From: Planctomycetota bacterium
GTDB taxonomy: Bacteria > Planctomycetota > Phycisphaerae > Phycisphaerales > Phycisphaeraceae
Assembly (NCBI GenBank): GCA_039188575.1
Contig: JBCCYY010000010.1
Span: 4,836 to 68,835 of the forward strand
Length of the DNA stretch: 64,000 bases
Direction: 5' to 3'
The position numbers were made by a program, and so were the translations under genes. Below, piece after piece: positions 7,686 through 31,235 of the stretch (positions within the stretch are counted from its first letter, which is position 1; the number at the start of each line of letters is the position of its first letter). Below the pieces are notes generated by a model, which was given only the letters and a program-made list of their open reading frames with translations, ran no database searches and had not been told where the DNA came from.

Positions 7686-10600
7686 TTAATCGTTGCGCAG
7701 CGCATCGGTAAGCCGGCCGCTGAGCGCGGGCATCAGGCCGAGCACGATCGCGGCGAGGCCGACGAGCAGCGGGGCGATGTAGGCTAGCGCGGTCGTCCAC
7801 AGGATCAAGCTAGAACTGCTTTGTGCGTGCATCGTGGCGAGCCAAGCACTCGCGCTGCCGAGCGATAAGCCGACGATGAGGATCACCGCGTGCTCGGTCA
7901 GGACGATGCGGGCGATCCGTTTTCGGCTCAGGCCAACCGCGCTAAGTAAGGCAAGCTCGGACCGCCGCTCGAGCAGGTTGCGCGCGGTGACGATGCCCAG
8001 GCCCAGCGAGCCGAGCAAGACGCCGAGCCCACCAAGCGACTGGAAGACGGCGAGGTACGTGTTCTGCACCCGGTTGTACTCCGCGAGGCGCTCGTTCGTT
8101 GGTGTAATCGTCGCGCCTTCATCGACGAGCACTTCGTTGAGCAGCTCTCTTGTTTCGCCAGCGGCTTGCCCCGAGACCGCATCGACGAGCAGCATGCGGT
8201 GGCCTGAGGTCGAAGGGAAGACCCGTTCGAAGTCTCGCTCGTTGATGATCAGGCTGCCCTGGAGGATGGTGTTCTCGATCGTGCCGACGAGTTGGAGCGT
8301 GACCGGCCGGCCCTGCTCGTCCGGCACGGTGACCGTGTCACCGACTGCGATCTTGAGTGCCCACTGCGCGGTGTTGGCGTCGGCGATGACGGGGATCATG
8401 CCGCGCTTATTTGGTGTTGATGCATTCAGAACGCCCCAACCGCTTGCCTTGTAGGCCACCTTCTGAAACCTGAACGCTGCTCGATCGGCGAGCAGCGCGG
8501 GGTCCACACCAAGTAGCCTTGGCGTCGGTGTCTGGTTCAGGTTCAAGCAACTCGCATCGTCGCCACCGCTGACACGGAAGGGCACAACGGAGCCTGTAGG
8601 CAACTCGTCTTCGCCTAGGACGTAGTGGTCTCGGCCGAGCTCGGTATTGAGGTCGTAGCGGATCGGCTGGCTTGTTTCGACGAGTAGCGCGAACCCGCCG
8701 GTACCCGAGGCGCGGTTGGTCGGGTCGTCGGTGCTGCTGAGTTGGAAGCCAGATACAGCGTAGACCAGGAACAGCCCTGCGCCGAGCATGAAGACGCCCG
8801 CAAGCGTACGGCCGCGTCGTCTTGTGAGATTCAAGACCGAGAGCGCGTTGTTCCACCGGAGCAGTGGCCCGGGGCTTTGCCCGCCGCCGCGTCGGATCAG
8901 GACCGTGAAGAGCAGCAGTAGCCCGCCGGCAAACCCAACCCCGCCTGCGGCAAAGCCGAACAGCGCACCGCGCATGCCTGTCTGCGTGTTTGTTATGGCG
9001 AGTAGTAGCGCGATGGCGATACCCGCGACAGCGAGGCCCGCCGTGATCTGCCACGAGAACCGAGAAGCTGACGACACCTTGCCGACACCGCCGGCCAGCA
9101 GTTCCCGCGCATGGTGCTTCGTCAAACCGCGGATTGCGATCGCCATCGCCAGCACGCAGATGATGAGCGTGACGAGCGGTCCAATCACCAGGGTCGTGGC
9201 GGGCATGTGCAGCAGCACGGCCGAGCCTGCCACCGCGCCGGACCACACGCCGGCCAGCGCATTGGTCACGCTGTAGGCGTAAGCCACTGCGCCGCCAACG
9301 CCGAGCAGCGCACCAACGAACGCGACGATCACCCCCTCACCAAGTAGGAGCCGCATGGCCTGACTTCGTGTTAGGCCGAGGGCCAGCAGGGTGCCGAGCT
9401 GTCTCGCACGCTGCTCGGCCGACATCGTAAATAGCATCACAGCCAGCACGATCGCAGCGATGATGATGAAGCCCGACAGCGAGAGGAACAGCTGGCCGAA
9501 GTCGACGGTACCGATCGCGGCGGCGTTGGCCTGGGCTTTGATGTCTGTTACAACGAGACCGAGTGCTTCAGCGTCGATGCGTTCGAGCAGTTGCTCCTCG
9601 GTGATCTCGTTGTCGAAGCGGATCGCAGTCAGTGTGCCGAAGCGGTTGGTCCACAGCCGTTGGCCTGTTTCGAGGTTGATGAAAGCCTTGGGCGTCGCGC
9701 GGTAGTCATCCCAGTAGGCCTCGTCCTTGTCGCGGATACGCGAGCGGTCGATCGCGGGCCCGGCGTCCCATCGTGAGAGCGTGTCCGCTTCGGCCAGCCC
9801 GGGGAAATCAGGTGTGAGCGTGCGGTCAGCGAATTTGCCTTCAAGTGGGACGATCTGTGCGATTGTCAGCGTCGCTGATGCTTCCACGAGACGATCGCCT
9901 TCGTCGGGAAGGAAATAGGTCAGCGTGAGCGTATCACCGATATCGGCGCCCAAGTCTTCGGCAAGCCATTCATTGACCGCGATTTCGTCGTCGGCAAGGT
10001 CCAAGTTGCCGAGCTGATTGGCCGCCGTCACCATGGCGTAAGGCGATTCGTTGCCATCGAGTGCAACAGTATTGACCATATACGTGAGGATGCGTTGGCC
10101 CGGCAGGTCGGCGAGATCGCTCTCAATCGATGGGTCGAGGAAAATACGATCGGTTGCGAGCTCTTGCTGACCGCCGCGCGGCTGCAGGATCAGTTGCAGG
10201 TCATCCAAGGACGGTTCAAAAGGCCCGATCGACTCGGCGGACAAGGCGAGGTTCACCTTGCCGGGTTGCCCGAGTTGGTCGGCTAGCCAATTCCGATCGA
10301 CGAAGACATTCAGTGGAGTCGTCTGTTCGGCACGGAGGCTGAACCGGCCGCCCTCATCATTGCCTGGGACATAGTCTTGGAGATCGACCTGGAGCGCGAG
10401 CGATGGTTTACTCGCGTTGACTAAAGCCGCATCGATCGGCAGTGCCGAGGGTTCAGCTACACGGATGATGAATGTTTCATTTGATTCGAGCCCGAGTTGA
10501 TCCTTCAGTGGTTGGTTGATTAAGACACTGTTCCCAGCGGGAAGAACAGCGATGTTCATCAAACCAGCAAATGCTGCATCGATACCAATCAGCGTGACGT

Positions 10601-10901
10601 TATTCGCTCGCCTGTTTCCATCAGGCGTTGAGGCTACGCCTTCTGCGATGATAACACCGCTGCTACCTTCACCAAATGATTGAGCGAGGCTATCGGTAAA
10701 GAAGCGATCGCCACCGATGACAGCCTGCTCGATGTTGCCGAGGCGTTGTTTCGCCGCTTGCGAGAGTGTGTAACGCATCGAATCCCCGACGAGCAGGGCG
10801 CCGGTGATGACGGTGCTGGCCAGGGCAACGCCTAGCATCACGCCCAGGTTCGTCCGCCAGAAGCGCGACATCGACTGCAGCATGAGGCGGTACAGCGTCA
10901 T
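7686..10901 (-). CDS. ABC transporter permease, tandem MacB/FtsX repeats
   Basis: 1071 aa with two MacB-periplasmic + FtsX-like halves (R..xLGTLLALGL, RRSELALLSAVG). ATGA overlap with the upstream ATPase. Confidence 0.9.
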   Translation of the reverse strand: MTLYRLMLQSMSRFWRTNLGVMLGVALASTVITGALLVGDSMRYTLSQAAKQRLGNIEQAVIGGDRFFTDSLAQSFGEGSSGVIIAEGVASTPDGNRRANNVTLIGIDAAFAGLMNIAVLPAGNSVLINQPLKDQLGLESNETFIIRVAEPSALPIDAALVNASKPSLALQVDLQDYVPGNDEGGRFSLRAEQTTPLNVFVDRNWLADQLGQPGKVNLALSAESIGPFEPSLDDLQLILQPRGGQQELATDRIFLDPSIESDLADLPGQRILTYMVNTVALDGNESPYAMVTAANQLGNLDLADDEIAVNEWLAEDLGADIGDTLTLTYFLPDEGDRLVEASATLTIAQIVPLEGKFADRTLTPDFPGLAEADTLSRWDAGPAIDRSRIRDKDEAYWDDYRATPKAFINLETGQRLWTNRFGTLTAIRFDNEITEEQLLERIDAEALGLVVTDIKAQANAAAIGTVDFGQLFLSLSGFIIIAAIVLAVMLFTMSAEQRARQLGTLLALGLTRSQAMRLLLGEGVIVAFVGALLGVGGAVAYAYSVTNALAGVWSGAVAGSAVLLHMPATTLVIGPLVTLIICVLAMAIAIRGLTKHHARELLAGGVGKVSSASRFSWQITAGLAVAGIAIALLLAITNTQTGMRGALFGFAAGGVGFAGGLLLLFTVLIRRGGGQSPGPLLRWNNALSVLNLTRRRGRTLAGVFMLGAGLFLVYAVSGFQLSSTDDPTNRASGTGGFALLVETSQPIRYDLNTELGRDHYVLGEDELPTGSVVPFRVSGGDDASCLNLNQTPTPRLLGVDPALLADRAAFRFQKVAYKASGWGVLNASTPNKRGMIPVIADANTAQWALKIAVGDTVTVPDEQGRPVTLQLVGTIENTILQGSLIINERDFERVFPSTSGHRMLLVDAVSGQAAGETRELLNEVLVDEGATITPTNERLAEYNRVQNTYLAVFQSLGGLGVLLGSLGLGIVTARNLLERRSELALLSAVGLSRKRIARIVLTEHAVILIVGLSLGSASAWLATMHAQSSSSLILWTTALAYIAPLLVGLAAIVLGLMPALSGRLTDALRND

Positions 10902-11614
10902 GCGGTTGCCCCATCAACGAGCTGGCCTTCTTCAAGCCGAAGCGTCTGGTCCAGACGCTTGGCTAGTGTATCCGCGTGAGTGACCATCAGCATCGCGGTC
11001 TGCTCGGCCTGGTTGAGCTCAATTAACAAGTCCATGATCTGGTCGGCGGTCTTGCTGTCCAGTGCCCCGGTCGGCTCATCGACCAGCAAGAGGGCGGGGC
11101 GGTTGATCAGGGCGCGAACGATGGCGACACGTTGTCGCTGCCCGCCTGAGAGCTGGTCGGGGCGGTGGTGGATGCGGTCACCCAGGCCGACGCGCGTGAG
11201 TAATTCGGTCGCGCGCTGCTGGCTACCCTTGCGGTCGATGCCTTTGGCGAGTGTGGGGATCAGCGCGTTCTCGAGCGCGGAGCACTGGGGGAGCATGTGG
11301 TGCTCCTGGAAGACGAAGCCGATCTGTTTGGCACGGAGATCGGCTTGTTGTATTGCGTTGAGTGAGGTGGTGTCTTTGCCAGCGATCGAGATAGAGCCGG
11401 CGGTTGGTGTGTCAAGAGTGCCGATGAGGTTTAGCAGAGTGGTCTTGCCGCAGCCGCTTGGGCCGATGATCGCGGCGGAATGACCTGTGTGCAGGCTGAG
11501 GTCAATGTCTTTGAGGACAGTCACCTCGCCGCCGTCCGCGTCGGGGTAGGTCTTGGTCAGGCCCTGAACGGACAGGATTGGGCTGTCTGCTGCGTTGGCT
11601 GCGGGTTCGCTCAT
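10898..11614 (-). CDS. ABC transporter ATP-binding protein (LolD/MacB-type)
   Basis: GPSGCGKT Walker A, LSGGQ signature, LLLVDEPTGALD Walker B, H-loop MVTH. Confidence 0.95.
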   Translation of the reverse strand: MSEPAANAADSPILSVQGLTKTYPDADGGEVTVLKDIDLSLHTGHSAAIIGPSGCGKTTLLNLIGTLDTPTAGSISIAGKDTTSLNAIQQADLRAKQIGFVFQEHHMLPQCSALENALIPTLAKGIDRKGSQQRATELLTRVGLGDRIHHRPDQLSGGQRQRVAIVRALINRPALLLVDEPTGALDSKTADQIMDLLIELNQAEQTAMLMVTHADTLAKRLDQTLRLEEGQLVDGATA

Positions 11615-12876
11615 GATTGCACCTCACGCCACCGCTTCGCCTTCATCTCGAATTTGGGTAGCGTGCCTTCCGCGGCCGCGCTAACCGGCACGCGTAGGCT
11701 CAATGCATCTCGCATCGCCTCGGCGATCAGTTTGCAGAGCGCATCGACATCAGTACAACCCGCGCCGGGTTCGATCCTTACAGACAACTCGTGCATCGCT
11801 CCGCTTGTTTCAATCAATACCTCGTATTCCGAAACCTCTTCGAAGCGGCGCACGATGGCATCGATCGCGGAGGGGTAGACGTTGACGCCACGGATGAGCC
11901 GCATGTCGTCGATCCGGCCGAGGATTCCGCCGACGAGCCGCATCGGGTCGGCTGGGTCTTGTTTGACGAGGTCGCCGGTGCGGTAGCGGAGCAGCGGGCA
12001 GGCGGTACGTTTGAGTGTGGTGAGTACGAGCTCGCCTTCGGTGCCGGGTTCAACGGGTTCGGTCGTTTGCAGATCGATGACCTCGACGAGGAAGTAGCCG
12101 TCGACTACACGCAGCGCGTGCGTAGTGCTTCCAGGGGTGTTGTGCTGGTAGGTCACAGGTCCGACCTCGGTCATGCCGTGGTGGTCGTAGAGCCTAGCAC
12201 CCCACGCGGACTCGATGCGCCCGCGCACCGCGGGGAGCGACCCACCGGGTTCGCCCGCGACGATAAGGCGAGCGACGGGTGAGTTGCTGAGGGGTTGCCC
12301 GGCCGCTGAAGCGGCATCGGCCAGGTGGAGGGCATAGGTCGGGGTGCAGCAGATGGTGTTGATGGCGTTGTCGTCGATCATCGCGAGGCGGGCGCTCGTG
12401 CTCATCCCGCCGGCGGGGAGGCACATCAGGCCCATCTGAGCTGCGGCCTCGTAGGCGGTCCAAAACCCGAGGAACGGGCCGAACGAGAACGCGAAGAGTA
12501 CGCGGTCGTCTCGCTTGCAGCCGGCCTGCTCGAAGACGATCTGCCAGACGTCGAGCATGCTTTGCCACGACTGCGGTGTGTCGATGATACGCAGCGGCTT
12601 ACCGGTCGTGCCGCTGGTCTGACAGAAGCGGGTGTACTGGTCGATCGGGAAGCTGTGATTGCTGCCGTAGGGCGGGTGGGCGAGTTGGTCTTCGACGAGC
12701 TGCTGCTTCGTCGTGAAAGGCATCTGCTGAACGAACTGTTCTATGGTGACGTGGCCGGTGTCTTCAAGCCCGGCCGCTTGCAGCAACGGTTGGTAGAACG
12801 CGTTTCCTTCTTGGATTGCGCGCAACAGAGCGCGCAAAGCCTTTGTTGTCGTCGAGTTGTCGATTACGGATGACAA
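11611..12876 (-). CDS. phenylacetate-CoA ligase (PaaK)-family aryl/acyl adenylating enzyme
   Basis: QTSGTTG P-loop, CCTPTYA, VAGEPG, DHHGMTE, PLLRYRTGD, GRIDDM..IRGVNVYPS, PKFEMKAKR. TTG start is uncertain. Confidence 0.85.
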   Translation of the reverse strand: MSSVIDNSTTTKALRALLRAIQEGNAFYQPLLQAAGLEDTGHVTIEQFVQQMPFTTKQQLVEDQLAHPPYGSNHSFPIDQYTRFCQTSGTTGKPLRIIDTPQSWQSMLDVWQIVFEQAGCKRDDRVLFAFSFGPFLGFWTAYEAAAQMGLMCLPAGGMSTSARLAMIDDNAINTICCTPTYALHLADAASAAGQPLSNSPVARLIVAGEPGGSLPAVRGRIESAWGARLYDHHGMTEVGPVTYQHNTPGSTTHALRVVDGYFLVEVIDLQTTEPVEPGTEGELVLTTLKRTACPLLRYRTGDLVKQDPADPMRLVGGILGRIDDMRLIRGVNVYPSAIDAIVRRFEEVSEYEVLIETSGAMHELSVRIEPGAGCTDVDALCKLIAEAMRDALSLRVPVSAAAEGTLPKFEMKAKRWREVQS

Positions 12877-12964: not shown

Positions 12965-13501
12965 TTATTCCTGCTGCGCGTTTTCAGTCGGTGTGGGCTT
13001 GCCGTGCGGCACGGGTTTGGGCTTCTGGGTCACGATCAGGTACGCCCCGACCGCCGCAAGCACGATACCCAGGAGGAACAACGGCTTGACCTGGCCCCAC
13101 TGTTTGTCCATCGTGATCGCGACCGCGGCATTCACCAGCGGGGCCCCCGCGAAGATCAGCGACATCACGACCGCTGGCTTGCCGCCCGCTCCGAACGCGA
13201 GCAGCACGCCGAACGCGCCGACGGCTCCGACGATGCCCGCGATCAGCGACCAGCTCATACCGCTGCCGGTCATCTTCCAGTCCGATCCGGTAATGAGCAG
13301 CATCACGAGCGGCGCGAGTACGGCAACGAGGAAGTACGCGATGCCGACGAAGAGGAAGGCCTTGTACCGCGCATTCGGATCACCGGGGCTCATCAGCACC
13401 TGCCCCTTGTGCAGGAAGATGCCGTAGAGCCCCCACGTGCCAATAGTCAGCAGTACGAAGAGGAGGTAGGACGATGAAGAGGAGGAGCTTTGAGCGAGCA
13501 T
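12965..13501 (-). CDS. small integral membrane protein, EamA/DMT-like transporter
   Basis: 178 aa with about five hydrophobic segments and Gly-rich DMT-like motifs (SLIAGIVGAVGAFGVLLAFGAGGKPAVV..LIFAGAP). Confidence 0.6.
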   Translation of the reverse strand: MLAQSSSSSSSYLLFVLLTIGTWGLYGIFLHKGQVLMSPGDPNARYKAFLFVGIAYFLVAVLAPLVMLLITGSDWKMTGSGMSWSLIAGIVGAVGAFGVLLAFGAGGKPAVVMSLIFAGAPLVNAAVAITMDKQWGQVKPLFLLGIVLAAVGAYLIVTQKPKPVPHGKPTPTENAQQE

Positions 13502-13509
13502 ACGGTTTC

Positions 13510-13944
13510 TCAGTTTTCTGGATCAATCACAACGAGGGCCTGGTCGATCTCTGCCGGTAACGACGCGGCCTTAAACTTGCCTTCACCGGCGGGCTTGATA
13601 GCGTAAACCACCTTGAGCGTGCCGGTTGCGATCGGGTCGGATTCGTCTGCCTTGCGGAACGCGAAGCCGTAGGTCACGGACTTGTTGGTCTTGGCTTTGA
13701 CAAAGACATCGACCGTGAAGACGTCCTCAAAGCGAAGCGGCTTCTTGTAGTCGCACGCCGCACTGACGCGGGGGAAGCCCGCTACGTCGTCGCCGATATC
13801 GCGATGCACCGATAGGCCAAGGTCGCGGAGCAGCGCGTGCTCGGCGTCTTCCATGTACCGGAAGAAGTGCGAGAAGTGCACGATGCCCGCGGCGTCGGTC
13901 TCGCTGAAGGCGACGCGTCGTGTCATGCGGAAGGTGCTAGGCAT
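13510..13944 (-). CDS. 4HBT/YbgC-family hotdog acyl-CoA thioesterase
   Basis: RRVAFSETDAAGIVHFSHFFRYMEDAEH signature; CDYKKPLRFED. Confidence 0.9.
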   Translation of the reverse strand: MPSTFRMTRRVAFSETDAAGIVHFSHFFRYMEDAEHALLRDLGLSVHRDIGDDVAGFPRVSAACDYKKPLRFEDVFTVDVFVKAKTNKSVTYGFAFRKADESDPIATGTLKVVYAIKPAGEGKFKAASLPAEIDQALVVIDPEN

Positions 13945-15221
13945 GCGGCCTCCAGGGCGGTTACGACGTGCAGTGACATGTGCTCGGCGGTAAACTGCTC
14001 GAGGACGGCTTTGCGTCCGACTTGCCCGAGCGCTCGCATCCGGGCAGGTTCGCTGATCAGCTCGGCGAGCTTGTCGGCCAGCGACCCCGGGTCGTCGGGT
14101 TCATACAAGATACCCCCGCCGGTGAGGGCGACAACCTCGGCCAGCCCCGCGTGGTTGGGCTCGATCACGGGGACGCCGCAGGCGTTGGCCTCAAGGACGT
14201 ACAGTCCGAAGGATTCGCCGTAGCTCGCGGGCACACTGAGCACGGACATCCCGCGCAGCAGGTGGGCCTTGTCTTGTAGGCTGACGTTGGTCTCGATGAG
14301 CACGCGGTCGGCCAGGCCCGCATCCGCCAGCCGCTTGTGCTGCTCATCGACGTAGCGCATATCCTTAGGCGAGGCCGCGCCGGCCAGGTGCAGGCGTGCG
14401 TTACCCAGCCGGCCGCGCTCATGCAGCAGTAGCACCGCGTCGACGAGCGTATGCAGCCCCTTGTTCTCGCAAAGCCGGGCGAAGAAACCGATTACCGGCG
14501 GGTCGGGCGGGTTGTCTTGTGGTTTGTAGTGCTGGGCCTCGATGCCGTTGTATACCACGCGGATCCTCTCGAACGACAGACCCATCCGGTCCGCCATCAC
14601 GTCCGCGTGGTACCGGCTGACCGGGAGGAACAACGCGACATCCCTCGCCTTCTCGGCGAGCAGTTTCCAGGCATTCGACCGCCAAGGCTCGGGCAGCGAA
14701 TCGATAAATGTATCCTCGCCCTGCAGGGTGCAGACCACCGGGCAGCCCATTACCTTGACGATCGGCTCGGCCAGGCCGAGCAGCAGCGCGTTGTTGAGCA
14801 GCACAACGTCTGGCGAGCCCTCTTGCCTGAGGTGTTGGATGAGGCGGTCGATTTCCAGACGTGTCTTACCGTGCTCGCCTAGTAGCATCTGCTCGGTCAT
14901 CCGGCCGAGTTCCTGTGGGCTGGTCATGTCGGCTCGGTTCGATGCCTTGCGCAGAAGCCCCGGCCGGTCGAGCCAACGCATCGCGGTGTTGGGCATGATG
15001 CGGAACAGCGCAGACTTCGCCTGGAGGTACAGGCCGATGCCACCCATGCTCACGTCATCGCCGTCGATGCCCTCTTCATTGTCGAGGACCAGCGGCAGGT
15101 AGAGCGCGTTGATCGCGGCGTCATGGCCGAGCTTTCGCAGCCCCCGCACGAGCGACTCGTCGTGCAGGCAGCTGCCGCAGTGAAAGTTGCCGGTGCCGGG
15201 CGTGAGGAGGAGGACTTTCAT
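13923..15221 (-). CDS. glycosyltransferase family 4 (GT-B) with N-terminal CxxC
   Basis: MKVLLLTPGTGNFHCGSC; C-terminal GT1 domain GFFARLCENKGL...ESFGLYVLEANACGVP. An alternative GTG start exists at 15281. Confidence 0.9.
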   Translation of the reverse strand: MKVLLLTPGTGNFHCGSCLHDESLVRGLRKLGHDAAINALYLPLVLDNEEGIDGDDVSMGGIGLYLQAKSALFRIMPNTAMRWLDRPGLLRKASNRADMTSPQELGRMTEQMLLGEHGKTRLEIDRLIQHLRQEGSPDVVLLNNALLLGLAEPIVKVMGCPVVCTLQGEDTFIDSLPEPWRSNAWKLLAEKARDVALFLPVSRYHADVMADRMGLSFERIRVVYNGIEAQHYKPQDNPPDPPVIGFFARLCENKGLHTLVDAVLLLHERGRLGNARLHLAGAASPKDMRYVDEQHKRLADAGLADRVLIETNVSLQDKAHLLRGMSVLSVPASYGESFGLYVLEANACGVPVIEPNHAGLAEVVALTGGGILYEPDDPGSLADKLAELISEPARMRALGQVGRKAVLEQFTAEHMSLHVVTALEAACLAPSA

Positions 15222-15285
15222 GGGGTTCGTCAGAGCACGAAGCGCAAGCGAGTGCCCCAGGTTCTCGATGTTCTGCGTCACTCGC

Positions 15286-16569
15286 TTACGCTTTGTGTTC
15301 CGCCAAGACTAGCGGCCTGCCGTAACTCAATGGCCTAGGCACATCGACGAACTCAGCGGTGGCTTCAAACAGCGATGTGAAGTCCGTGGACATCTTGCCG
15401 ATAAGGCAGTCGGTCAGGTCGCTGCGCAGGTGCGGGTGCTTCTTGAGGAGGTCGGCGAACGAGAAACCCTCTGCGTAGAAGGCGTACACCAGCTTGCGCA
15501 TCGCTTCGATACCGTTCTGAAACTCGTCGGTGTATTTCTCGAAGCGTTCGGCCGAAGGGTCGTCGTGCTTGAGCGCTTCGTGCACGGTGTCGGCGGCGAG
15601 TTGCCCGCTGGTGAGCGCGAGGAAGACGCCTGACGAGAACACCGGGTCGAGGAAGCCGAACGCGTCGCCCGTCAGGACTAGCCCGTCCGTTGCGCTGTGC
15701 TCTGAGCGGTAGGAGTAGTCGCCGGTCACCCATGTTTCGCCGAACTGCTCGGCGTCCTGCATGACGTCTTTCACCCACTGGTTGGATTCGATCTCGCGTT
15801 CCATCACCGCGAGCGGGTCCTTGAGCCCGTCGCGATAGAGGTAGGACCGCTCGCCGACAACACCGAGACTGATCCGATCGTCGTGCATCGGGATGTGCCA
15901 GAACCAGCCCTTCTCGGGGACGTAGGCGACGGTGGTCGCGCCTTCGTCCCGGCCCGCGCCGCGCTTACCACCCTTGTAGTAGGTCCACAGCGCGATCTTG
16001 TTGAGCTGTGGGTCGCGCTTGCGCTTCCAGCCCATCGCGTTGGCGGCGAAGCCGTTACGACCCGACGCGTCGATGGTCATCGGCGCATGAAGTTGGATCG
16101 TCTGGCCGTGCTCGTCCTTGGCCTCGATGCCGACCACGCGGCCTGTGTCGTCTTGCAGGACCTTGCTCGCTGAGACACCGAAGCGGACATCGACGCCGTG
16201 GTCATTGGCGTTGTCGGTCATCATCATGTCGAACTTCGCGCGTTCGACCTGCCAGGTCTGGCCTGCGGGGTGGCCATCGAGGTGGTCGGAGAAGTAGAAC
16301 GGCTGAGACATCCGCCCGTCCATCGTGGCGAACTGCACCGAGTACTTCCTAACGAACGCGGTCTTGTTGAGTTTGTCCACCATGCCCAGGCGCTGGAGCG
16401 TCTCGTAGCAGAAAGGCAGCAGCGACTCACCGACATGGTAGCGCGGGAAGCCCTCGCGTTCGAGCAGGACGACCCGTCGGCCGTGCTGTGCTAGCAGTGT
16501 CGCGGCAGAAGAACCGGCCGGCCCGGCGCCGACCACAATCACATCGTACTGGTTGTTTCTACTAATCAT
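15286..16569 (-). CDS. flavin-dependent halogenase-family oxidoreductase
   Basis: GAGPAG (GxGxxG), FPRYHVGESLLP, FVRKY (candidate catalytic Lys), GWFWHIP (WxWxIP), GDAFGFLDPVFSSG (FxxPxxSxG). Halogenating activity itself is inferred. Confidence 0.8.
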   Translation of the reverse strand: MISRNNQYDVIVVGAGPAGSSAATLLAQHGRRVVLLEREGFPRYHVGESLLPFCYETLQRLGMVDKLNKTAFVRKYSVQFATMDGRMSQPFYFSDHLDGHPAGQTWQVERAKFDMMMTDNANDHGVDVRFGVSASKVLQDDTGRVVGIEAKDEHGQTIQLHAPMTIDASGRNGFAANAMGWKRKRDPQLNKIALWTYYKGGKRGAGRDEGATTVAYVPEKGWFWHIPMHDDRISLGVVGERSYLYRDGLKDPLAVMEREIESNQWVKDVMQDAEQFGETWVTGDYSYRSEHSATDGLVLTGDAFGFLDPVFSSGVFLALTSGQLAADTVHEALKHDDPSAERFEKYTDEFQNGIEAMRKLVYAFYAEGFSFADLLKKHPHLRSDLTDCLIGKMSTDFTSLFEATAEFVDVPRPLSYGRPLVLAEHKA

Positions 16570-16577
16570 GGCAAATA

Positions 16578-17147
16578 CTAGGCCTGCGTACTAAATGGGT
16601 CTAGGGGAGGTAGGATTTCAATGATCTGGGCGATTGCCCGCCCGTCGGGCATCTTAAGCTCATTTTTCCGGCCGTAGAGCGACCCCTCCGTGACGTGGAG
16701 GGCTTGGCAGAGCAGCTCGTCCGGGTCGACCTCGAGGTAGGCCGAGGGGTTGGAGACGTAGGCGACACCGTGCTCGCGGAGGACCCGGCCCAGCGGGACC
16801 CTGCACTCGGCGACGAGCTCGCGGGTTTCCCCATCGAAGCAGGACAGGTCAATCCGGATCGCGCCGAACTCAGCGGGCCGGCCGTCGTCCTTGCCCATGA
16901 GCGAGACCTGGCGGTAGAGCGAGTCGCCCTCGAGCCGCTTGACGTGGACGCGGAGGGTCATGGGCTGCTTGAAATACGTCTCGAGCGTGCCGGTCATGTC
17001 GCGGTCGTGGGCCAGCAGCGTGCGATATGGCTCGGGCAGCTCCTCGGCCTCGAGGATCCGTGCGCGGGTCACGCCCTTGCTCGCGTCGCAGTCGAAGCAC
17101 GAGAGCGGGTAGAGGATGTCGCTGGTGGGGGAGTCGGTCATACTCAT
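16578..17147 (-). CDS. chorismate pyruvate-lyase-like (UbiC/DUF98 fold) protein
   Basis: LLAHDRDMTGTLE...LYRQVSL...EFGAIRI...PLGRVLREHGV...YGRKNEL...IIEILP pattern typical of the chorismate lyase fold. ATGA-coupled to the radical SAM gene. Confidence 0.65.
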   Translation of the reverse strand: MSMTDSPTSDILYPLSCFDCDASKGVTRARILEAEELPEPYRTLLAHDRDMTGTLETYFKQPMTLRVHVKRLEGDSLYRQVSLMGKDDGRPAEFGAIRIDLSCFDGETRELVAECRVPLGRVLREHGVAYVSNPSAYLEVDPDELLCQALHVTEGSLYGRKNELKMPDGRAIAQIIEILPPLDPFSTQA

Positions 17148-18517
17148 GCGTATCGCACCCCCCGGTGCTCTTCCTTGAAGAAGGCGACCAGCAGCGTATC
17201 AATCCGCAGCAGGGTCTGCCTCGGGATGATGATCTCGTCGCCCTCGATGACAAACAAGCCCTGATCGACATAGTCCTGCAGTACATCGGCCCACTTCTCG
17301 AACGGGTCGACACCGAACTTCTCGATGAACGGCTGGCGGTTGATCTTGCCGATCTTCAGCTGCAGGACCCACTCCCGTATCATCGCTTCTTCGGCATCGA
17401 TCGGCAATGCGCGGTACATCGGCTGCTCCCCGCCGGCGATGGCGGACATGTACGGCACGATGTCGTGCTGGTTCTGGTAGTGCATGCCGCCGCCTTCTTT
17501 GTCCGCACCCTCGGGCGCGGTCATGTAGCCGAAGGACGAGACGCCCAGCGCGAGCATATCGGCCCCGGACCACAGCGCATCGCGGTAGACAAACTTGATC
17601 TCGGCCTCGTCGCGCACCGCCGTGTAGGCGCTGGTGATGTCGTAGCCGTTGGCTTCGAGCGCGGCGTAGGCCTCGGTGACCCAGCGTCGCTTCGTGCCCC
17701 AGTCGGCGACCGGGGCCTCATCGCTGCCCGACTCTTTCATGTTCTTATAGATGGTGGTGTTGTAAGGCACCTCCATCTGGTAGATCGTGACCGCGTGTGG
17801 CCGCAGGTGCACGAGCGTATCGATGTTGGCCCGCCAGTTTTCATCGGTCTCGCCGAGCATGCCCGAGATCAGATCGATGTTGACCTGCTGGAAGCCGGCG
17901 TCGATCGCCCACTGGTACGCGTTGCCGACCTGCTGGCTGCGGTGGGCGCGGTTGTTGAGCTCTAGGATCTGGTCGTTGAAGTTCTCGATGCCCAATGAGA
18001 TGCGCGTTACGCCTAGTTCTTTGAGGCAGGCAAGCTTTCGGGTGCTCAGCGTGCCGGGCTCGCACTCGAAGGCGACCTCTTCGACTTCGTTCCAGTCGAG
18101 CAGGTCTTTGAGCCCGTTGAACAGGTATGTCAGCTGCTTCTCGGAGAGGTAGCTCGGTGTGCCGCCGCCGAAGTAGACGAACTTGAGCTTCCGGCCGGCG
18201 ATGCGTTCGGTCTGGGCGTACCGCCTTGCCTCTTCGAGCACCGAGTCGAGGTACTCGGTTACCTCGTCGCGCGTCTTATCTGTGTACACGCGGAAGTAGC
18301 AGAAGTGGCAACGCTTCCGGCAAAACGGGATGTGCACATACAGCCCAAGCGGCGTCCCAGGCGGAGCGGGCGTGTCAAAGATTGCCTGACCCGCGTCGCG
18401 GTGGTCCACGGACCACGTCGAGTAAAGCGGGTAATTCGAGACGAAGAAGTTGCCGACGGTGGTCTTCTTATCGTCCGCCTCGAGCACGGTCAGCCGGGTT
18501 GTGTCTTCGGTTGACAT
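17144..18517 (-). CDS. HemN-like radical SAM enzyme (coproporphyrinogen III oxidase family / class C methyltransferase)
   Basis: LYVHIPFCRKRCHFCYF (CxxxCxxC), VYFGGGTPS, RISLG, NIDLISG, LGVSSFG; HemN C-terminal domain. Confidence 0.9.
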   Translation of the reverse strand: MSTEDTTRLTVLEADDKKTTVGNFFVSNYPLYSTWSVDHRDAGQAIFDTPAPPGTPLGLYVHIPFCRKRCHFCYFRVYTDKTRDEVTEYLDSVLEEARRYAQTERIAGRKLKFVYFGGGTPSYLSEKQLTYLFNGLKDLLDWNEVEEVAFECEPGTLSTRKLACLKELGVTRISLGIENFNDQILELNNRAHRSQQVGNAYQWAIDAGFQQVNIDLISGMLGETDENWRANIDTLVHLRPHAVTIYQMEVPYNTTIYKNMKESGSDEAPVADWGTKRRWVTEAYAALEANGYDITSAYTAVRDEAEIKFVYRDALWSGADMLALGVSSFGYMTAPEGADKEGGGMHYQNQHDIVPYMSAIAGGEQPMYRALPIDAEEAMIREWVLQLKIGKINRQPFIEKFGVDPFEKWADVLQDYVDQGLFVIEGDEIIIPRQTLLRIDTLLVAFFKEEHRGVRYA

Positions 18518-18521
18518 GGGC

Positions 18522-19649
18522 TTAGTCCGCGTTGCTCGGTTTGAAGGCGTAGATGCTACCGTCCTCGGAGCCGACGACGATGAGGTCTTTAGTGACAGCG
18601 GGGCTGACGTTCATCGCGCCGCCGAGGTCGCGCTCCCAGACGGTACTACCATCCTTTACTTCAATGATAGAGAGCCGGCCGCCGGCCGAGCCGAAGATTG
18701 CACGCGACTTGGCGATGACCGGGGCACCTTCGACGCCGCCGCGGGTGCGGATGTCCCATAGCTTCTCGCCGGACTTACGATCGACGGCGTAGAGCCGTCG
18801 GCCGCGCGATCCGATGAGCAGCGTGTCGCCTGACAGCGCGGGCGAGCCGATGAACGGGAAATCCCGGTCGCGGAACCGCCAGGCGACTTTCTTCTTGTTG
18901 AGATCGATCGCGAGCACCTCGCCCTGCATGTGCCCGATGTAGGCGTGGCCGTTGCTGAGCGCGGGGGTTCCTGCGACCTCGCCGCCGAGCTCGATCTGCG
19001 CGGTGCCTTCGCCGGTCTGGAGGTCGATGAGGTGCATCATGGTGTCACAGCCCCCGAGGACAATCGTATTATCGTCCAGCACGATGCCGCAGTTGACGTA
19101 ATCGCCTGTCTCGTAGGCCCAGACCTGCTCGCCGGTCTCGGCGTTGATGCAGTAGAGCTGGCCGTCGTGGCTGCCGACGATGACAACTTTTTGTCCTTTG
19201 CGGGCGGTGACCGCTGCCTCGCCGGCGATCCGTCCCTCGGTCTTGAACTGCCATTTGGGCTCGCCTGTCTTGGTATCGACCGCGAGCAGCACGCCGCCGT
19301 CTGTTCCGATGTAGACGACGCCGTCGTCGTAGATCGGCGAGGCATCGATGAGGCTCTCGGTCGCGAGCTTCCATTTCTCTTTGCCGGTCTTCGCGTCGAT
19401 CGCATGCAGGTGCTTATCTTCTGAACCAACGTAGACGACGCCGTCCACGATGATCGGCGAAGACAGCACGGCCCCGTCGGTTTTGTACGTCCACATGGGC
19501 TGGTAGCTGTTCTGCAGCTGTACATCCGCGGTACCCAGCCCCTGCAGACCGCCGCGCGGGTGCGGCCAGTTGGTTGGCTCTGCGTGGGCGACCAAGCCTG
19601 ATGTAGCCAGTACCATCAGGGCGAGTAGGAAAAAGTTGTTTCGCATCAC
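18522..19649 (-). CDS. secreted PQQ-binding-like (BamB-like) beta-propeller protein
   Basis: Signal peptide, W...RG start, eight repeats of the type SSP.I.DG.VY.GS.D..L.A.D..TG..KW. Confidence 0.9.
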   Translation of the reverse strand: MMRNNFFLLALMVLATSGLVAHAEPTNWPHPRGGLQGLGTADVQLQNSYQPMWTYKTDGAVLSSPIIVDGVVYVGSEDKHLHAIDAKTGKEKWKLATESLIDASPIYDDGVVYIGTDGGVLLAVDTKTGEPKWQFKTEGRIAGEAAVTARKGQKVVIVGSHDGQLYCINAETGEQVWAYETGDYVNCGIVLDDNTIVLGGCDTMMHLIDLQTGEGTAQIELGGEVAGTPALSNGHAYIGHMQGEVLAIDLNKKKVAWRFRDRDFPFIGSPALSGDTLLIGSRGRRLYAVDRKSGEKLWDIRTRGGVEGAPVIAKSRAIFGSAGGRLSIIEVKDGSTVWERDLGGAMNVSPAVTKDLIVVGSEDGSIYAFKPSNAD

Positions 19650-20812
19650 ATTTCCCCCCCAAACGCTGCGGCATAAAGCGCTTCAAAGTCTTCGGCTTTG
19701 ATCTCGCGTGGATTGAAGTTGGCCGTCCATTGTCCGGCAGCTTTCTCTGCTAATTCGGGGATTGCTTCGGGACTTGCGATGGGGCCGAGCTTTGTTTCCA
19801 GACCTGCTTTCGTGAGCAAGCGAGTCAGTGTTTCGATCAAAGGATCGACACCCGACACCCCGGCAAGTTCCGCGAGCGTCTCATAGGACGCCTTGGCCTC
19901 TTCATTCTTCGCGTTGAAGCGGATGACGTGTGGCAGCATCAGGCCGACAGCCTGGCCATGGATCGTGCCGAACTTCGCGGTCAGCGGGTTCGCGCAGGAG
20001 TGCGCCGCACCAAGCATGCTGTTCTCGATCGCTAGCCCGGCATAGGCCGCGCCAAGCAGCATGTCGCCGCGGGCCTTGGTATCGCCCGGGTCTTCGAGCA
20101 CCCTGGGCAGTGCGTGAATGGCCAGCGCGAACGACTCCGCCGCGTAACGCATTGAGACATCATTGCGGCGCGTACAGACGTACGACTCAACGGCGTGCGT
20201 GATCGCATCGATACTCGTGCACGCCGCGACGCTGGCGGGCTGGGTCAGGGTCAGTGCGGGGTCAAGCAGCGCGATGATGGGCAGGGCCTTTGGGTCGCCG
20301 CAGGCCATCTTCATGTGCGTGTCTTCATCCGCGATCAGCGCGTAGGACTGCGCTTCGCTGCCCGTGCCGTGCGTGGTGGGCACGGCGATCAGCGGCAGCA
20401 TCTTCTCGACGGGCTTGTCGGCGTGGTGGTAGTCCGCCATCACGCCGCCATTGGTATAGATGAAGTTACAGCCCTTGGCGGTGTCGATCGCCGAGCCACC
20501 GCCCAGGCCAATTAAAAGATCCGGCTCGAATACACTTGCGGCTTCGACCGCCTCGGTCACATCGGCGGTCGAGGGATTCTCGTGGACACGTGTGAATGTC
20601 GCCGCTTCTAGGCCGGCGGCTTTTACGATGTCCAGCCCGTGCTCGGTGTGCCCGGCCTGCGTGACGCCGGGGTCGCTAATGATCATGACGCGCTTGACAC
20701 CAAGCTCGGCACAGAGTGTGCCGAGGTGTTCCAACGCACCGTCCCCGAACACCAAGCGTGTGCCGGGCGTGTGGTCGAGGTCCGCTGGGGCAGGCGTCGT
20801 GATCGTCGTCAT
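19646..20812 (-). CDS. iron-containing alcohol dehydrogenase
   Basis: GLGGGSAIDTAK, AVPTTHGTGSE, DAITHAVESY, GAAHSCANPL, HGQAVG. Start placed at the ATG overlapping the upstream stop (ATGA at 20809-20812). Confidence 0.95.
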   Translation of the reverse strand: MTTITTPAPADLDHTPGTRLVFGDGALEHLGTLCAELGVKRVMIISDPGVTQAGHTEHGLDIVKAAGLEAATFTRVHENPSTADVTEAVEAASVFEPDLLIGLGGGSAIDTAKGCNFIYTNGGVMADYHHADKPVEKMLPLIAVPTTHGTGSEAQSYALIADEDTHMKMACGDPKALPIIALLDPALTLTQPASVAACTSIDAITHAVESYVCTRRNDVSMRYAAESFALAIHALPRVLEDPGDTKARGDMLLGAAYAGLAIENSMLGAAHSCANPLTAKFGTIHGQAVGLMLPHVIRFNAKNEEAKASYETLAELAGVSGVDPLIETLTRLLTKAGLETKLGPIASPEAIPELAEKAAGQWTANFNPREIKAEDFEALYAAAFGGEM

Positions 20813-22257
20813 GCACCCGCCCCGGCCAACGCGTGATGGATCGCGCGGCGCTGATAGAGAAACTCGAACAAGTTGCCCTCGTGCGGCTGGTCCCACTGCG
20901 CACTGCTCGTCGGCGCTGGGCCGAGGTTCAGCCGCTGGATATCACGGCAACGCAGGAGCTCGTTCGTGAACCGATCGTCGTGCGTGATCGCACTGACGAC
21001 CAGCGTCCCGCCGATCTTGCTCAGCACCTCGCTCTGTGGCACCTCGACGACCGATGCGAACGGGAACATAAACTCAGTGTTACAGAGCACGTGCTCCCAC
21101 GAGTCACAGTGGATCAGCGTGGGCAGCACGTAGGTCCGACCCTCAAAAGTGGAAAGCCGAGACGACCCACCACGGACCGCCTCGGTCAGGTCCGCGGCCC
21201 CCGGCGACTGCAAACCATTGGTAATCTGTGCGTCCGCCCACTCGGCGACCTTCGGGTTCGCAATTGCGGACAGCTTCGCGCTAGCGTCATCGTTGGGCAG
21301 CGGCGTGATTTGCGCGAGCTTCTCGGCGATGGCCTGGGCCAACTCCTTGCCGTGGCTGGGCACGATGATGGTCGAAGCATTGATGCAGGACCGGCCGGAG
21401 TTCGCCGCAATCGACTGCACGATGACATCGACGTACTTGGGCCAGTTCGCGATCTCGTCTTCGCCGATGATGACCTTGGACCAGCCCGGGCCGTGTACCT
21501 CGACGCGTTCATCGCCGCCATAGCGCTTCATAGTCGCTTCGCCTCCGAAGATGATCGAGCGGTCGCAGAGGTCCATAACGGCGGCCGAGCCCTCGTGGTC
21601 GGTCGGGTAGAACCCAAAGGCCTCTTCGGGCACGCCCGCGGCGATCATCGCCTGCACGACGCGGTAGGGCGTCCACGGCTCATCGCTACCCGGCTTGAGG
21701 ATCACCGGCGTCTTGAACGCGATCGACGGCAGCCAGAGCGCGTTCACGCCCGGCGAGTTGCTCGGCATCACCATGCCCAGTGCCTGCGTTGTGGGGTAGA
21801 AGCTCACTGCTGTGTTGCCGACTTCGCCGAAGCCGGCGTCGATCACCGACGGGTCGATCCCGCGCGTGAGGCCTCGGACGATGTCTTCGAGGTGCGTCAG
21901 CGCTTCATGCACCTTTGCCATGTTCGCACGGACCAGCGTGTGCGGCAGGCCGCTCGTGCGTGACAGCTGCTGGACGTAATCGCCCGGCGACTGGACCGCG
22001 TCACCCAGCGGCAGATCGGCGTTCATGAACAGATCGCCCGCCTTGGCGGACATCTCGATCAGCTCCTCGCAGGGGATCGCATCGAGCGCGGCCTTGGCCT
22101 GGGCGAACTTGTGGCTGTCGCGCTTGAGCAGGCCCGCGTTGCCGACGGACATCTCGGCGACGGTCTCGCCTGTTCCGAGGTCCTTGATCGGGCGGGTGTT
22201 GACGCTGCGGTAGGTGGTTCCGAGGCGGAGGATCGGGATATGGGGGAGGCTGGTCAT
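20809..22257 (-). CDS. aldehyde dehydrogenase / acyl-reductase family protein (GriD/EhpG/LuxC-like)
   Basis: VMPSNSPGV..LW, VILKPGSDEPWT, IFGG, HGPGWSK, SGRSCINAS (catalytic Cys region), EFMFPF. Directly downstream of the EhpF/GriC-like gene. Confidence 0.8.
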   Translation of the reverse strand: MTSLPHIPILRLGTTYRSVNTRPIKDLGTGETVAEMSVGNAGLLKRDSHKFAQAKAALDAIPCEELIEMSAKAGDLFMNADLPLGDAVQSPGDYVQQLSRTSGLPHTLVRANMAKVHEALTHLEDIVRGLTRGIDPSVIDAGFGEVGNTAVSFYPTTQALGMVMPSNSPGVNALWLPSIAFKTPVILKPGSDEPWTPYRVVQAMIAAGVPEEAFGFYPTDHEGSAAVMDLCDRSIIFGGEATMKRYGGDERVEVHGPGWSKVIIGEDEIANWPKYVDVIVQSIAANSGRSCINASTIIVPSHGKELAQAIAEKLAQITPLPNDDASAKLSAIANPKVAEWADAQITNGLQSPGAADLTEAVRGGSSRLSTFEGRTYVLPTLIHCDSWEHVLCNTEFMFPFASVVEVPQSEVLSKIGGTLVVSAITHDDRFTNELLRCRDIQRLNLGPAPTSSAQWDQPHEGNLFEFLYQRRAIHHALAGAGA

Positions 22258-22356
22258 GTCTGGATACAACTAATGGGTGTACGTATTATTGCAGGTATTA
22301 CACAACAGCCTGCATTTTGCACTGGGTGTGCATGAACAAGACGATAAAAAACGCGT

Positions 22357-25117: not shown

Positions 25118-25362
25118 TGTGCGTCTCCGTCGGGCTGTTCAGCATCGCCATCGATTTCATCCGCCCACGCCTCGACCTCGCTGGGCCAAGCGAACCTCAC
25201 CGCGAACGCCCAAAGCGTGACCGCGCACATTGAGAAACCCGCGTGGTACGCCAACGAAACAGGGATAAAACCGAACACCAGGTCATTGTTGTCCCAGTTC
25301 CAGAAGTCCTGGTGCAGGATGAACATCAGGCAGAAAATGATGAGTATGATTTTTTTGCCCAT
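25114..25362 (-). CDS. DUF3311-like small membrane partner of the SSS transporter
   Basis: 82 aa, LHQDFWNWD...FGFIPVSLAYH, two transmembrane segments; ATGA-coupled to the SSS gene. Confidence 0.8.
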   Translation of the reverse strand: MGKKIILIIFCLMFILHQDFWNWDNNDLVFGFIPVSLAYHAGFSMCAVTLWAFAVRFAWPSEVEAWADEIDGDAEQPDGDAQ

Positions 25363-25378
25363 GGCGAGTTCTCATACA

Positions 25379-25447
25379 GGAGGGCGGGGCTCTTTGGCGA
25401 GCCGCGAATCAGAGAGGGCCTTCGGCTCGGCAGGAGCCCCGCCCTCC
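25379..25447. repeat. planctomycete-type REP element (RLGRSLALP/GEAPAEP family)
   Basis: 14-bp perfect arms GGAGGGCGGGGCTC / GAGCCCCGCCCTCC with inner GAGCCG/CGGCTC pair; intergenic. The plus strand translates as RLGRSPALP. Confidence 0.75.
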
Positions 25448-25456
25448 CTGATAGCT

Positions 25457-27019: not shown

Positions 27020-27088
27020 TCAATCCATTTCACTTCGTATTTGTTGTTTTAGTTTTCAATCTGCGTGTATCCACGTTCATCCGCGGTT
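26954..27088. repeat. 30-bp inverted repeat pair (3 x 10-nt AAC(G/A)CAGAT-type units) enclosing a start codon
   Basis: AACCGCAGATGAACACAGATAAACGCAGAT (26954-26983) versus ATCTGCGTGTATCCACGTTCATCCGCGGTT (27059-27088): 25/30 complementary, 75-nt loop. Confidence 0.8.
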
Positions 27089-27103
27089 CCAAACGCTTCG
27101 ACT

Positions 27104-30084: not shown

Positions 30085-30226
30085 ATCCTGATCTAGAATG
30101 ATGCTGTTGCAATTTCAGGGTGGGTGTGGAAAACGTTCAAGCGGCCGTGTATAACTACACTCGGTTAGCCGTCTGTGGTGAGGTGCAAGGTGTTTGCCCC
30201 ATGCGTATGGCTGGAGAAAGGATCAC

Positions 30227-31141: not shown

Positions 31142-31235
31142 TTGCACAACGACCTTTCTTGGGGTGACGTACCGGTTTGAGGGGCCTAGACTAAGTGCCG
31201 AGGCAAGGACTGTCTCAGACGAAAGCACGCATGCC

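Follow-up and report, generated by a model that had tools for sequence, protein, structure and literature searches.

The DNA analysed here, hereafter the window, is a stretch of 64,000 nucleotides (nt) from the genome of a Planctomycetota bacterium of the family Phycisphaeraceae (assembly GCA_039188575.1, contig JBCCYY010000010.1, positions 4,836 to 68,835). On its minus strand, an open reading frame (ORF) for a small chorismate-lyase-like protein (positions 16578-17147; 189 amino acids, aa) is followed by an ORF for a flavin-dependent halogenase (15286-16569; 427 aa). The TAG stop codon of the former is separated from the ATG of the latter by the spacer tatttgcc, i.e. the two genes lie 8 nt apart on the same strand, as a first-pass annotation made from the sequence had claimed. 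The start codon of the lyase-like gene overlaps the stop codon of the upstream gene as ATGA, and the lyase-like gene is thereby translationally coupled to this gene, which encodes a HemN-like radical S-adenosylmethionine (SAM) enzyme. On the other side, a gap of 4 nt separates the halogenase gene from a GT4-type glycosyltransferase gene. The first-pass annotation had compared the pair with the marine bromophenol (bmp) clusters. Framing it as a stand-alone module of this kind is too narrow, as the conserved unit is an operon of 17 genes (7686-29488), in which the pair represents genes 10 and 11; all genes are on the minus strand and mostly separated by 4-8 nt or joined by short overlaps. Adjacency of the lyase-like and halogenase genes is not due to chance: of 71 loci that could be evaluated, belonging to different species in several phyla, 39 have the halogenase gene directly downstream of the lyase-like gene. 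Separation of the pair by internal promoters or terminators was also considered and rejected: promoter-like sites occur at chance level between 7 and 18 kb of the window, and the terminator-like sites, about twice as frequent as the mean of shuffled sequences (15 versus 7.4 ± 3.7), spare the 8-nt gap. As best single reading, we propose with moderate confidence that the operon specifies a halogenated and further modified compound derived from 4-hydroxybenzoate (4-HBA).

The first-pass annotation had assigned the larger protein of the pair to the flavin halogenases, and this family call is borne out by database matches. The protein matches Pfam model Trp_halogenase (PF04820) with 112.8 bits at a cut-off of 21, and nine of its ten best matches in the PDB are named halogenases, the tenth being 3nix, an uncharacterized flavoprotein whose PDB entry bears only the designation 'flavoprotein/dehydrogenase' (E values 5.8e-62 to 3.2e-35). 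The ranking is led by 8zop (E = 5.8e-62; 37% identity), for which no paper on the structure was found in the literature, and CndH (3e1t; E = 8.1e-53; 36% identity). PltA (E = 2.1e-48) and Bmp2 (E = 7.9e-48, i.e. about 1e-47) follow, and these two as well as 3nix share 29-33% identity with the window protein; Mpy16, CmlS, ChlB4 and RadH are also among the halogenases matched. The first clearly non-halogenase match in the PDB is a geranylgeranyl reductase (E = 1.1e-16). Among the NCBIfam models, CmlS (chloramphenicol halogenase) scores best with 203 bits at a model cut-off of 900, followed by QhpG (139.6 bits), the geranylgeranyl reductase family (135.3 bits), LodB (116.9 bits) and GoxB (87.7 bits). 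As all these scores are under the equivalog cut-offs, the flavoprotein is none of these exact enzymes.

The sequence features that had suggested a halogenase in the first place are all present and near-invariant in a set of 119 homologues sharing at least 56% identity. They comprise the GxGxxG motif for binding of flavin adenine dinucleotide (FAD; G14-A-G-P-A-G19), the WxWxIP motif (W222-F-W-H-I-P227; 15889..15906), the FxxPxxSxG motif (F306-L-D-P-V-F-S-S-G314; 15628..15654) and a lysine at the expected place. This residue, Lys75 (codon 16345..16347), shares its alignment column with CndH Lys76, which we take to be the catalytic lysine of the CndH structure paper, and also with the respective lysine residues of PltA, Bmp2, 8zop and 3nix; it is the presumed haloamine-forming catalytic lysine, which in flavin halogenases is situated where the tunnel leading from the flavin ends. 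Residues Lys75, W224, F306, D308, P309, S312 and G314 are invariant in all 119 homologues, W222 and P227 are each kept in 118 and I226 in 117 of them. A role as geranylgeranyl reductase or UbiH-type hydroxylase was rejected, as such matches score 60-150 bits below those to halogenases and the lysine and the WxWxIP motif are conserved. Two halogenase homologues (G033:C3:311339-312586 and G321:C36:19264-20481) contain one in-frame TGA each, which could reflect a pseudogene, a sequencing error or recoding.

A maximum-likelihood tree unites in one clade (support 100/99) the operon-linked halogenases that stem from Planctomycetota, Verrucomicrobiota and Acidobacteriota. Next to it, at a node that the tree leaves unresolved, are 8zop plus CndH and the homologues from Planctomycetaceae, and PltA and Bmp2 branch further out. 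The phylogenetic comparison with PltA, CndH and Bmp2 that had been recommended thus places the operon-linked enzymes nearer to CndH and 8zop. The latter are the closest solved structures and have the same catalytic lysine, WxWxIP and FxxPxxSxG motifs, but the operon-linked enzymes of the three phyla stand in a clade of their own apart from both, and CndH is longer than the window halogenase (512 versus 427 aa). CndH, the chondrochloren halogenase, chlorinates a para-substituted phenol and presumably requires a substrate of the tyrosyl type that is bound to a carrier. From these similarities, the flavoprotein is predicted to be a two-component halogenase dependent on reduced FAD (FADH2) and of the phenol/pyrrole CndH/PltA/Bmp2 type, the 'variant B' group. 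Bmp5, which had been named as an analogue, appears to be the wrong choice, given the match of the window enzyme to the CndH/PltA/Bmp2 group in comparisons that contained no Bmp5 sequence; Bmp5 is a single-component enzyme, which also decarboxylates. In agreement with the first-pass annotation, no flavin reductase is encoded in the operon, nor elsewhere in the window, and the only PF01613 gene of the genome is located on another contig. For an enzyme of the two-component type, this absence is unproblematic. A second strong PF04820 gene was not found in the genome.

The smaller protein of the pair had been labeled chorismate-lyase-like. This label stands with regard to the UbiC/UTRA fold and the active-site pattern, but finds no backing by a Pfam or NCBIfam family: the 189-aa protein has no match in either collection, even at E = 10, and strict membership in the UbiC family (PF04345) or the Rv2949c-like/DUF98 family (PF01947) is not given. 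Rv2949c, after which Pfam names PF01947 'Rv2949c-like', is a proven chorismate pyruvate-lyase. As no family model matches, the label rests on fold and active-site pattern. A database search retrieved 96 homologues, all of about 185-215 aa, some of which carry the label 'chorismate-pyruvate lyase' from automatic annotation by JGI. Six-frame searches with both Pfam models detected no PF04345 or PF01947 gene at any place in the 95%-complete genome.

An AlphaFold2 model of the lyase-like protein, computed from an alignment of 32 sequences (alignment A1), is confident with a mean predicted local distance difference test score (pLDDT) of 90.8 and a predicted template modeling score (pTM) of 0.86. 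When compared with the PDB by Foldseek, this model matched best the DUF98 protein 2nwi (E = 3.9e-8; template modeling (TM) score 0.65 by query and 0.77 by target), after which UTRA effector domains of GntR/HutC regulators were retrieved; E. coli UbiC (1g81) was found with E = 2.2e-4 and TM scores of 0.56/0.63. A profile search, which uses sequence only, likewise led from the lyase-like profile to 2nwi (E = 0.0068). Identity to UbiC and DUF98 proteins is about 15-18%. Alignment with E. coli UbiC (from NC_000913) by hhalign yielded a probability of 78% (E = 1.8e-5) and placed Arg79 (codon 16911..16913) on UbiC Arg77, i.e. Arg76 when the initiator Met is not counted, within the columns LYRQVSL and WLREILL. 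In the same alignment, P118-L-G-R falls on P-L-G-R and Y-G159-R160 on W-G-R of UbiC. Two further correspondences were recognized by inspection: outside the hhalign block, the segment D-M51-T52-G-T-L-E resembles S-M-T-K-R-F-E around UbiC Met34, and past the block, E177-I-L-P resembles E-L-F-L-P around UbiC Glu155 when a shift by one residue is allowed. Because of this shift beyond the aligned block, Glu177 (codon 16617..16619) is only proposed as the equivalent of Glu155. In UbiC, we take Arg76 and Glu155 to be catalytic and Met34 and Leu114 to provide backbone contacts (E. coli numbering). Met51-Thr52, Arg79, Pro118/Gly120, Gly159-Arg160 and Glu177 are invariant in alignment A1 as well as in alignment A3, which consists of nine sequences from Planctomycetales with 27-35% identity to the window protein. 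The fold and the Arg and PLG positions, and as judged by inspection probably also the Met-Thr and Glu positions, are shared with UbiC and Rv2949c/DUF98, whereas the window protein has some 35 additional residues at its N terminus. Judged from modeled fold and residue pattern, it most likely represents a third family of chorismate pyruvate-lyases, for which no model exists.

The remaining genes of the operon encode candidate activating, reducing, glycosylating and exporting functions. Its head is formed by two genes for exported PQQ_2-type propellers, as judged from Pfam domains (27104-29488 and 25457-27019), followed by a hydrophobic ORF of 82 aa (25114-25362), whose counterpart in another locus (L001) is annotated as DUF3311, and a sodium:solute symporter gene (23474-25117; domain match). 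The 82-aa ORF shares its last 4 nt with the beginning of the symporter gene and probably encodes the small subunit of the symporter; the operon is counted as 17 genes because this ORF is included. The entire head (23474-29488) recurs in the same order in L001. Domain matches identify an ANL-type adenylating protein (22357-23535), a reductase of the aldehyde dehydrogenase family (20809-22269) and an alcohol dehydrogenase of the Fe-ADH family (19646-20896) as the next products; their domains and conservation in the operon copies were confirmed. Together (19646-23535), these three proteins suggest a putative module for conversion of an acid to the aldehyde and the alcohol, including a two-protein carboxylate reductase. 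A third exported PQQ_2-type beta-propeller with an N-terminal hydrophobic signal (18522-19649; Beta-prop_ACSF4 and PQQ_2) precedes the radical SAM enzyme (17144-18517). The latter is HemN-like, of the class C type, and matches PF04055 with 86.7 bits; with about 171 bits, its matches to the HemW, STM4012 and ChuW models stay under the respective cut-offs.

Downstream of the halogenase gene, the GT4 glycosyltransferase (13923-15281; Glycos_transf_1, 91 bits) is followed by a 4HBT (hotdog-fold) acyl-coenzyme A (CoA) thioesterase (13510-13944; PF13279, PF03061) and by a membrane protein of 178 aa (12965-13501), which has no Pfam match and for which a hydropathy scan indicates about five hydrophobic spans. 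A homologue of this protein weakly matches EamA, and identity is 48-94% in the operon copies that carry the gene; it may be a small transporter of the drug/metabolite transporter type or a flippase working with the glycosyltransferase and the products of the last two genes. These are an ABC ATPase (10898-11614; ABC_tran) and an FtsX-type permease of 1071 aa (7686-10901; FtsX), which together (7686-11614) form a putative exporter and are preceded by a PaaK-like aryl-acid adenylating enzyme or CoA ligase (11611-12876; AMP-binding and AMP-binding_C_2). Genes for a cytochrome P450, a carrier protein or proline activation were not found among the 17 operon genes, and fatty-acid or polyketide synthase genes are lacking in the operon and its variants.

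The operon is conserved well beyond the window. In Phycisphaeraceae bacterium D3-23, 16 of the 17 genes are present in the same order, with the first propeller gene cut by the end of the locus and the lyase-like protein being 64% identical. Metagenomic contigs contain the gene set in partly reordered form, together with lyase-like proteins of 38-47% identity. A pattern scan of GTDB species genomes with an alignment of ten lyase-like sequences detected 171 loci, the best 80 of which were kept, so that Planctomycetia are under-sampled. These best 80 loci derive from Planctomycetota, Verrucomicrobiota (Chthoniobacterales, Limisphaerales, Verrucomicrobiales and Pedosphaera), Acidobacteriota (Bryobacterales and Terriglobia) and Armatimonadota. 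Neighboring genes were counted in the 60 loci that could be evaluated on both sides. An uninterrupted series of radical SAM, lyase-like and halogenase genes is found in 27 of them; within 10 kb of the lyase-like gene, a radical SAM gene is found in 42/60 and a halogenase gene in 34/60, and 17/60 have neither. Hence, the most constant neighbor of the lyase-like gene is the HemN-like radical SAM gene and not the halogenase gene. In Acidobacteriota the arrangement is reduced to a minimal module of four genes encoding the radical SAM enzyme, the lyase-like protein, the halogenase and the PaaK-like enzyme. In the sole annotated module of this kind, from a metagenome-assembled genome of Bryobacterales (L066; 7813-13636), an alpha/beta-hydrolase designated 'putative esterase' comes next and thus replaces the 4HBT thioesterase. 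The compact module of L066 is immediately preceded by a gene for a LytTR-type response regulator. Solitary copies of the lyase-like gene in Acidobacteriota and Verrucomicrobiota have uninformative neighbors.

Within the Planctomycetota, we determined the distribution of both gene families in 401 evenly sampled genomes, 57 of which contain the lyase-like gene, with one copy in each case. A close halogenase homologue is encoded in all of these 57 genomes, as compared to 29 of the 344 genomes lacking the lyase-like gene, a count that ignores shared ancestry. In the order Planctomycetales, the lyase-like gene is present in 279 of 287 genomes (73 of 74 genera) and a halogenase homologue in 274 (71 of 74 genera). 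For the halogenases of Planctomycetaceae, this does not imply strict orthology, because their placement within the operon-linked clade has no firm support in the tree. Planctopirus limnophila DSM 3776 has adjoining radical SAM (ADG65996) and lyase-like (ADG65997) genes, followed by an ORF that does not encode a halogenase; the genus carries a halogenase homologue. In the corresponding region (L133; 30-2031), ADG65997 is annotated as 'conserved hypothetical' and ADG65996 as 'coproporphyrinogen dehydrogenase'; this assignment to haem synthesis is probably wrong. A distribution that is near-universal in an order including the freshwater genus Planctopirus is at odds with a bromophenol cluster confined to a marine niche.

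From the gene content we infer the substrate and the halide, the position of halogenation on the ring of 4-HBA, the sequence of reactions and the end product as follows. The lyase-like protein would convert chorismate to 4-HBA and pyruvate, and, in what is the most economical scheme, the PaaK-like ligase would activate 4-HBA to 4-hydroxybenzoyl-adenosine monophosphate (4-hydroxybenzoyl-AMP) or 4-hydroxybenzoyl-CoA, the putative substrate of the compact, carrier-type halogenase. Supplied with FADH2 by a reductase acting in trans, the halogenase would form hypochlorous or hypobromous acid (HOCl or HOBr) at the flavin, and Lys75 would relay it for electrophilic halogenation ortho to the phenolic hydroxyl group of 4-HBA or its activated derivative. 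Release may be accomplished by the 4HBT thioesterase, or by the esterase in Acidobacteriota. The HemN-like radical SAM enzyme is expected to introduce a further modification, probably of the one-carbon type. In the Phycisphaeraceae operon, reduction of the acid to the aldehyde and the alcohol, glycosylation by the GT4 enzyme and export by the ABC/FtsX system could follow. The proposed scheme of activation, halogenation and release has two grounds: the minimal module of four genes includes a ligase, and most versions of the operon encode a hydrolase. Its logic is similar to that of the ambigol and pyoluteorin pathways, with CoA replacing the carrier protein.

The ambigol pathway of Fischerella ambigua employs the chorismate lyase Ab5, the adenylation enzyme Ab6, the carrier protein Ab8, the halogenase Ab10 and Ab9 for release: activated 4-HBA is halogenated meta to the carboxyl group and subsequently released, as suggested here for the operon. 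The window operon differs in that it lacks a carrier protein, a condensation domain and a P450; activation by the PaaK-like ligase would generate a CoA or AMP ester, the hotdog thioesterase would account for release, and the radical SAM enzyme as well as a branch for reduction, glycosylation and export are added. The bmp clusters of marine Pseudoalteromonas encode the lyase Bmp6, the brominase/decarboxylase Bmp5 and the pyrrole brominase Bmp2. In these clusters too, a lyase supplies 4-HBA to a flavin halogenase, and Bmp2 is a recognizable homologue of the window halogenase (167 bits, 31% identity). Unlike bmp, however, the operon has no P450 (Bmp7), carrier protein or proline-activating genes, and it is found largely conserved in multiple phyla rather than as a sporadic marine cluster.

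The closest precedent stems from the Planctomycetota. The first-pass annotation had pointed to a report on a planctomycete producing 3,5-dibromo-p-anisic acid; such a report exists and describes isolation of the compound from Planctomycetales strain 10988 (Panter et al., bioRxiv 10.1101/723874). Its authors proposed a pathway consisting of the chorismate-lyase-like protein BaaA, the adjacently encoded flavin halogenase BaaB and an O-methyltransferase encoded elsewhere, for which mutants could not be made (bioRxiv 10.1101/723874). In a 2025 review, baaAB is still listed as a postulated pathway. As in the window, where the spacing is 8 nt, a lyase-like gene is located directly beside a flavin halogenase gene on the same strand in a planctomycete, neither a methyltransferase nor a flavin reductase is encoded in the locus, and the inferred logic leads from chorismate via 4-HBA to a ring-halogenated product. 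This likeness is drawn from the published description, and the baaAB proposal comprises two genes, whereas the window pair is part of a conserved operon of 17. Beyond the work of Panter et al., nothing on the larger operon was found in the literature. A second planctomycetal product is alichondrichlorin from Alienimonas chondri (Planctomycetaceae), a 2-chloro-3-hydroxy C26 acid that is esterified to yield its 25-O-(4-hydroxybenzoyl) derivative (PMC11848864). According to the 2025 review, biosynthetic genes have not been assigned to it in the literature. It combines a 4-hydroxybenzoyl unit with an enzymatic halogen and comes from a family in which both gene families are near-universal.

Several points weigh against ring halogenation of 4-HBA as the function of the operon. 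The lyase-like protein is outside both curated chorismate-lyase families of Pfam, its Glu177 reaches the position of Glu155 only by a one-residue shift past the hhalign alignment, and no member of the lyase-like or the halogenase subfamily has a known enzyme activity. The nearest characterized halogenases act on carrier-bound substrates, and the operon encodes no carrier protein. Near-universality in an order that includes freshwater and soil bacteria is unusual for a halogenated secondary metabolite. The two genes do not always occur together: variants L004, L062 and L125 of the operon lack the halogenase gene, L041-L043 lack the lyase-like gene, and in Planctomycetales the two copies are often megabases apart, e.g. 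at 2.08 Mb and 4.48 Mb in genome G043, where they are surrounded by housekeeping or unrelated genes that give no functional clue. BaaA and BaaB were never genetically validated (bioRxiv 10.1101/723874), and in alichondrichlorin, a planctomycetal halogenated product that does contain 4-HBA, chlorine is found at C-2, the alpha-carbon of the fatty acid, and not on the ring as proposed for the window operon (PMC11848864). As to the variants without the lyase-like gene, the radical SAM gene of L041 (G388:C99; 8898-10817) is directly followed by the halogenase gene and then by 660 nt without a match to operon proteins, and in L042 and L043 the halogenase gene has a terminal position behind the genes for the FtsX permease and a propeller.

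With regard to the physiological role, the distribution allows a bolder but tentative extension of the proposal. The radical SAM, lyase-like and halogenase genes may be the core of an ancient, largely vertically inherited pathway, in which 4-HBA-derived halogenation would have a housekeeping function and the product would be an exported envelope glycoconjugate or a small cofactor for the periplasmic propellers that the operon encodes. Near-universal presence in Planctomycetales and wide occurrence in Verrucomicrobiota, Acidobacteriota and Phycisphaerae point in this direction, but overall we regard this extension as possible rather than probable.

Among the alternatives to ring halogenation, the one that survives best, albeit as an unlikely one, retains the lyase-like enzyme as source of 4-HBA and assigns the halogenase to another, aliphatic or enolisable carbon, as proposed for CmlS. 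A candidate site is the alpha-carbon of a beta-ketoacyl thioester, in which case 4-HBA would be an unhalogenated acyl cap attached via the PaaK-like ligase. CmlS is indeed the best NCBIfam model, and alichondrichlorin pairs an unhalogenated 4-HBA ester with an alpha-chloro-beta-hydroxy acid; a chlorinated fatty acid has also been reported from Rhodopirellula baltica. Near-universality of both genes in Planctomycetales, and the presence of ligase and hydrolase genes in an operon that lacks tailoring enzymes specific for the ring, fit this explanation as well. However, the operon and its variants contain neither fatty-acid or polyketide synthase genes nor a carrier protein gene, the 203 bits for CmlS are far from the cut-off, CndH, PltA and Bmp2 outrank CmlS in the PDB, and the product known from strain 10988 is a ring-brominated derivative of 4-HBA.

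It is rather doubtful that the small protein is no chorismate lyase at all and uses the UbiC/UTRA fold for another ligand, e.g. isochorismate or a related dihydroaromatic acid, or for binding and delivery of a substrate as partner of the HemN-like radical SAM enzyme, the halogenase then working on their product. The failure to match PF04345 or PF01947 at any threshold would agree with this, as would the hhalign probability of only 78% and the fact that most Foldseek neighbors are non-catalytic UTRA effector domains of GntR regulators. The neighborhood likewise speaks for a tie to the radical SAM enzyme, which is encoded within 10 kb more frequently than the halogenase and in Planctopirus adjoins the lyase-like gene without a halogenase gene following. 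On the other hand, the best structural match is a member of DUF98 (PF01947), the residues by which UbiC handles chorismate (Arg, the Met backbone site, PLG and Glu) are those that are invariant here, and the 17 loci with neither partner nearby are expected of a self-sufficient enzyme. The least likely rival, and a very improbable one because Lys75 and WxWxIP are conserved, sees in the flavoprotein a halogenase-like monooxygenase of the QhpG, LodB or GoxB type that hydroxylates a ring or a protein residue, e.g. in the propellers, on the way to a quinone-type cofactor: the NCBIfam matches to all three, the three propeller genes within the operon, a near-universal distribution that suits a cofactor better than a toxin and the resemblance of radical SAM enzyme, flavoprotein, propellers and ABC exporter to the biogenesis of quinohemoprotein amine dehydrogenase are outweighed by the essentially invariant Lys75 and WxWxIP, which are taken to separate halogenases from monooxygenases, by halogenase matches 60-90 bits over those to QhpG and LodB, and by a radical SAM enzyme that is HemN-like and not SPASM-type, with no precursor peptide evident.

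A module of chorismate lyase and halogenase is as such known already; new are the tie to the radical SAM enzyme, the 17-gene operon and the unusually broad distribution, which in part extends to the core genome. Flavin halogenases usually count as tailoring enzymes of sporadic occurrence that serve the synthesis of antibiotics and toxins. In the present case, a flavoprotein with the halogenase signatures travels with a putative 4-HBA-forming enzyme and an unstudied HemN-like radical SAM enzyme in four phyla, and the frequency among Planctomycetales genomes is about 96% for the lyase-like gene and likewise for a halogenase homologue. This suggests a pathway of wide occurrence that has escaped description, and not a rare cluster for an antibiotic, and points to a common organohalogen or halogenase-dependent metabolite of bacteria in soil, freshwater and ocean. 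For halogenated products of planctomycetes, baaAB is the sole pathway proposed at the level of genes; its two-gene model would be incomplete if baaAB has the same neighbors as the pair in the window operon. Planctopirus limnophila DSM 3776 is a genetically tractable carrier of the radical SAM and lyase-like genes.

Two groups of genes flank the operon in the window. Directly downstream, a gene on the minus strand (1225-7122) encodes a protein of 1965 aa composed of DUF4011, an AAA_11/AAA_12 superfamily 1 (SF1) helicase, REase_MTES_1575 and DUF3320; this helicase/nuclease protein looks unrelated to the operon. Past the other end, in divergent orientation (30194-32024, plus strand), two proteins are encoded, one PEP-CTERM-anchored and the other bearing a prepilin-type methylation motif at its N terminus.

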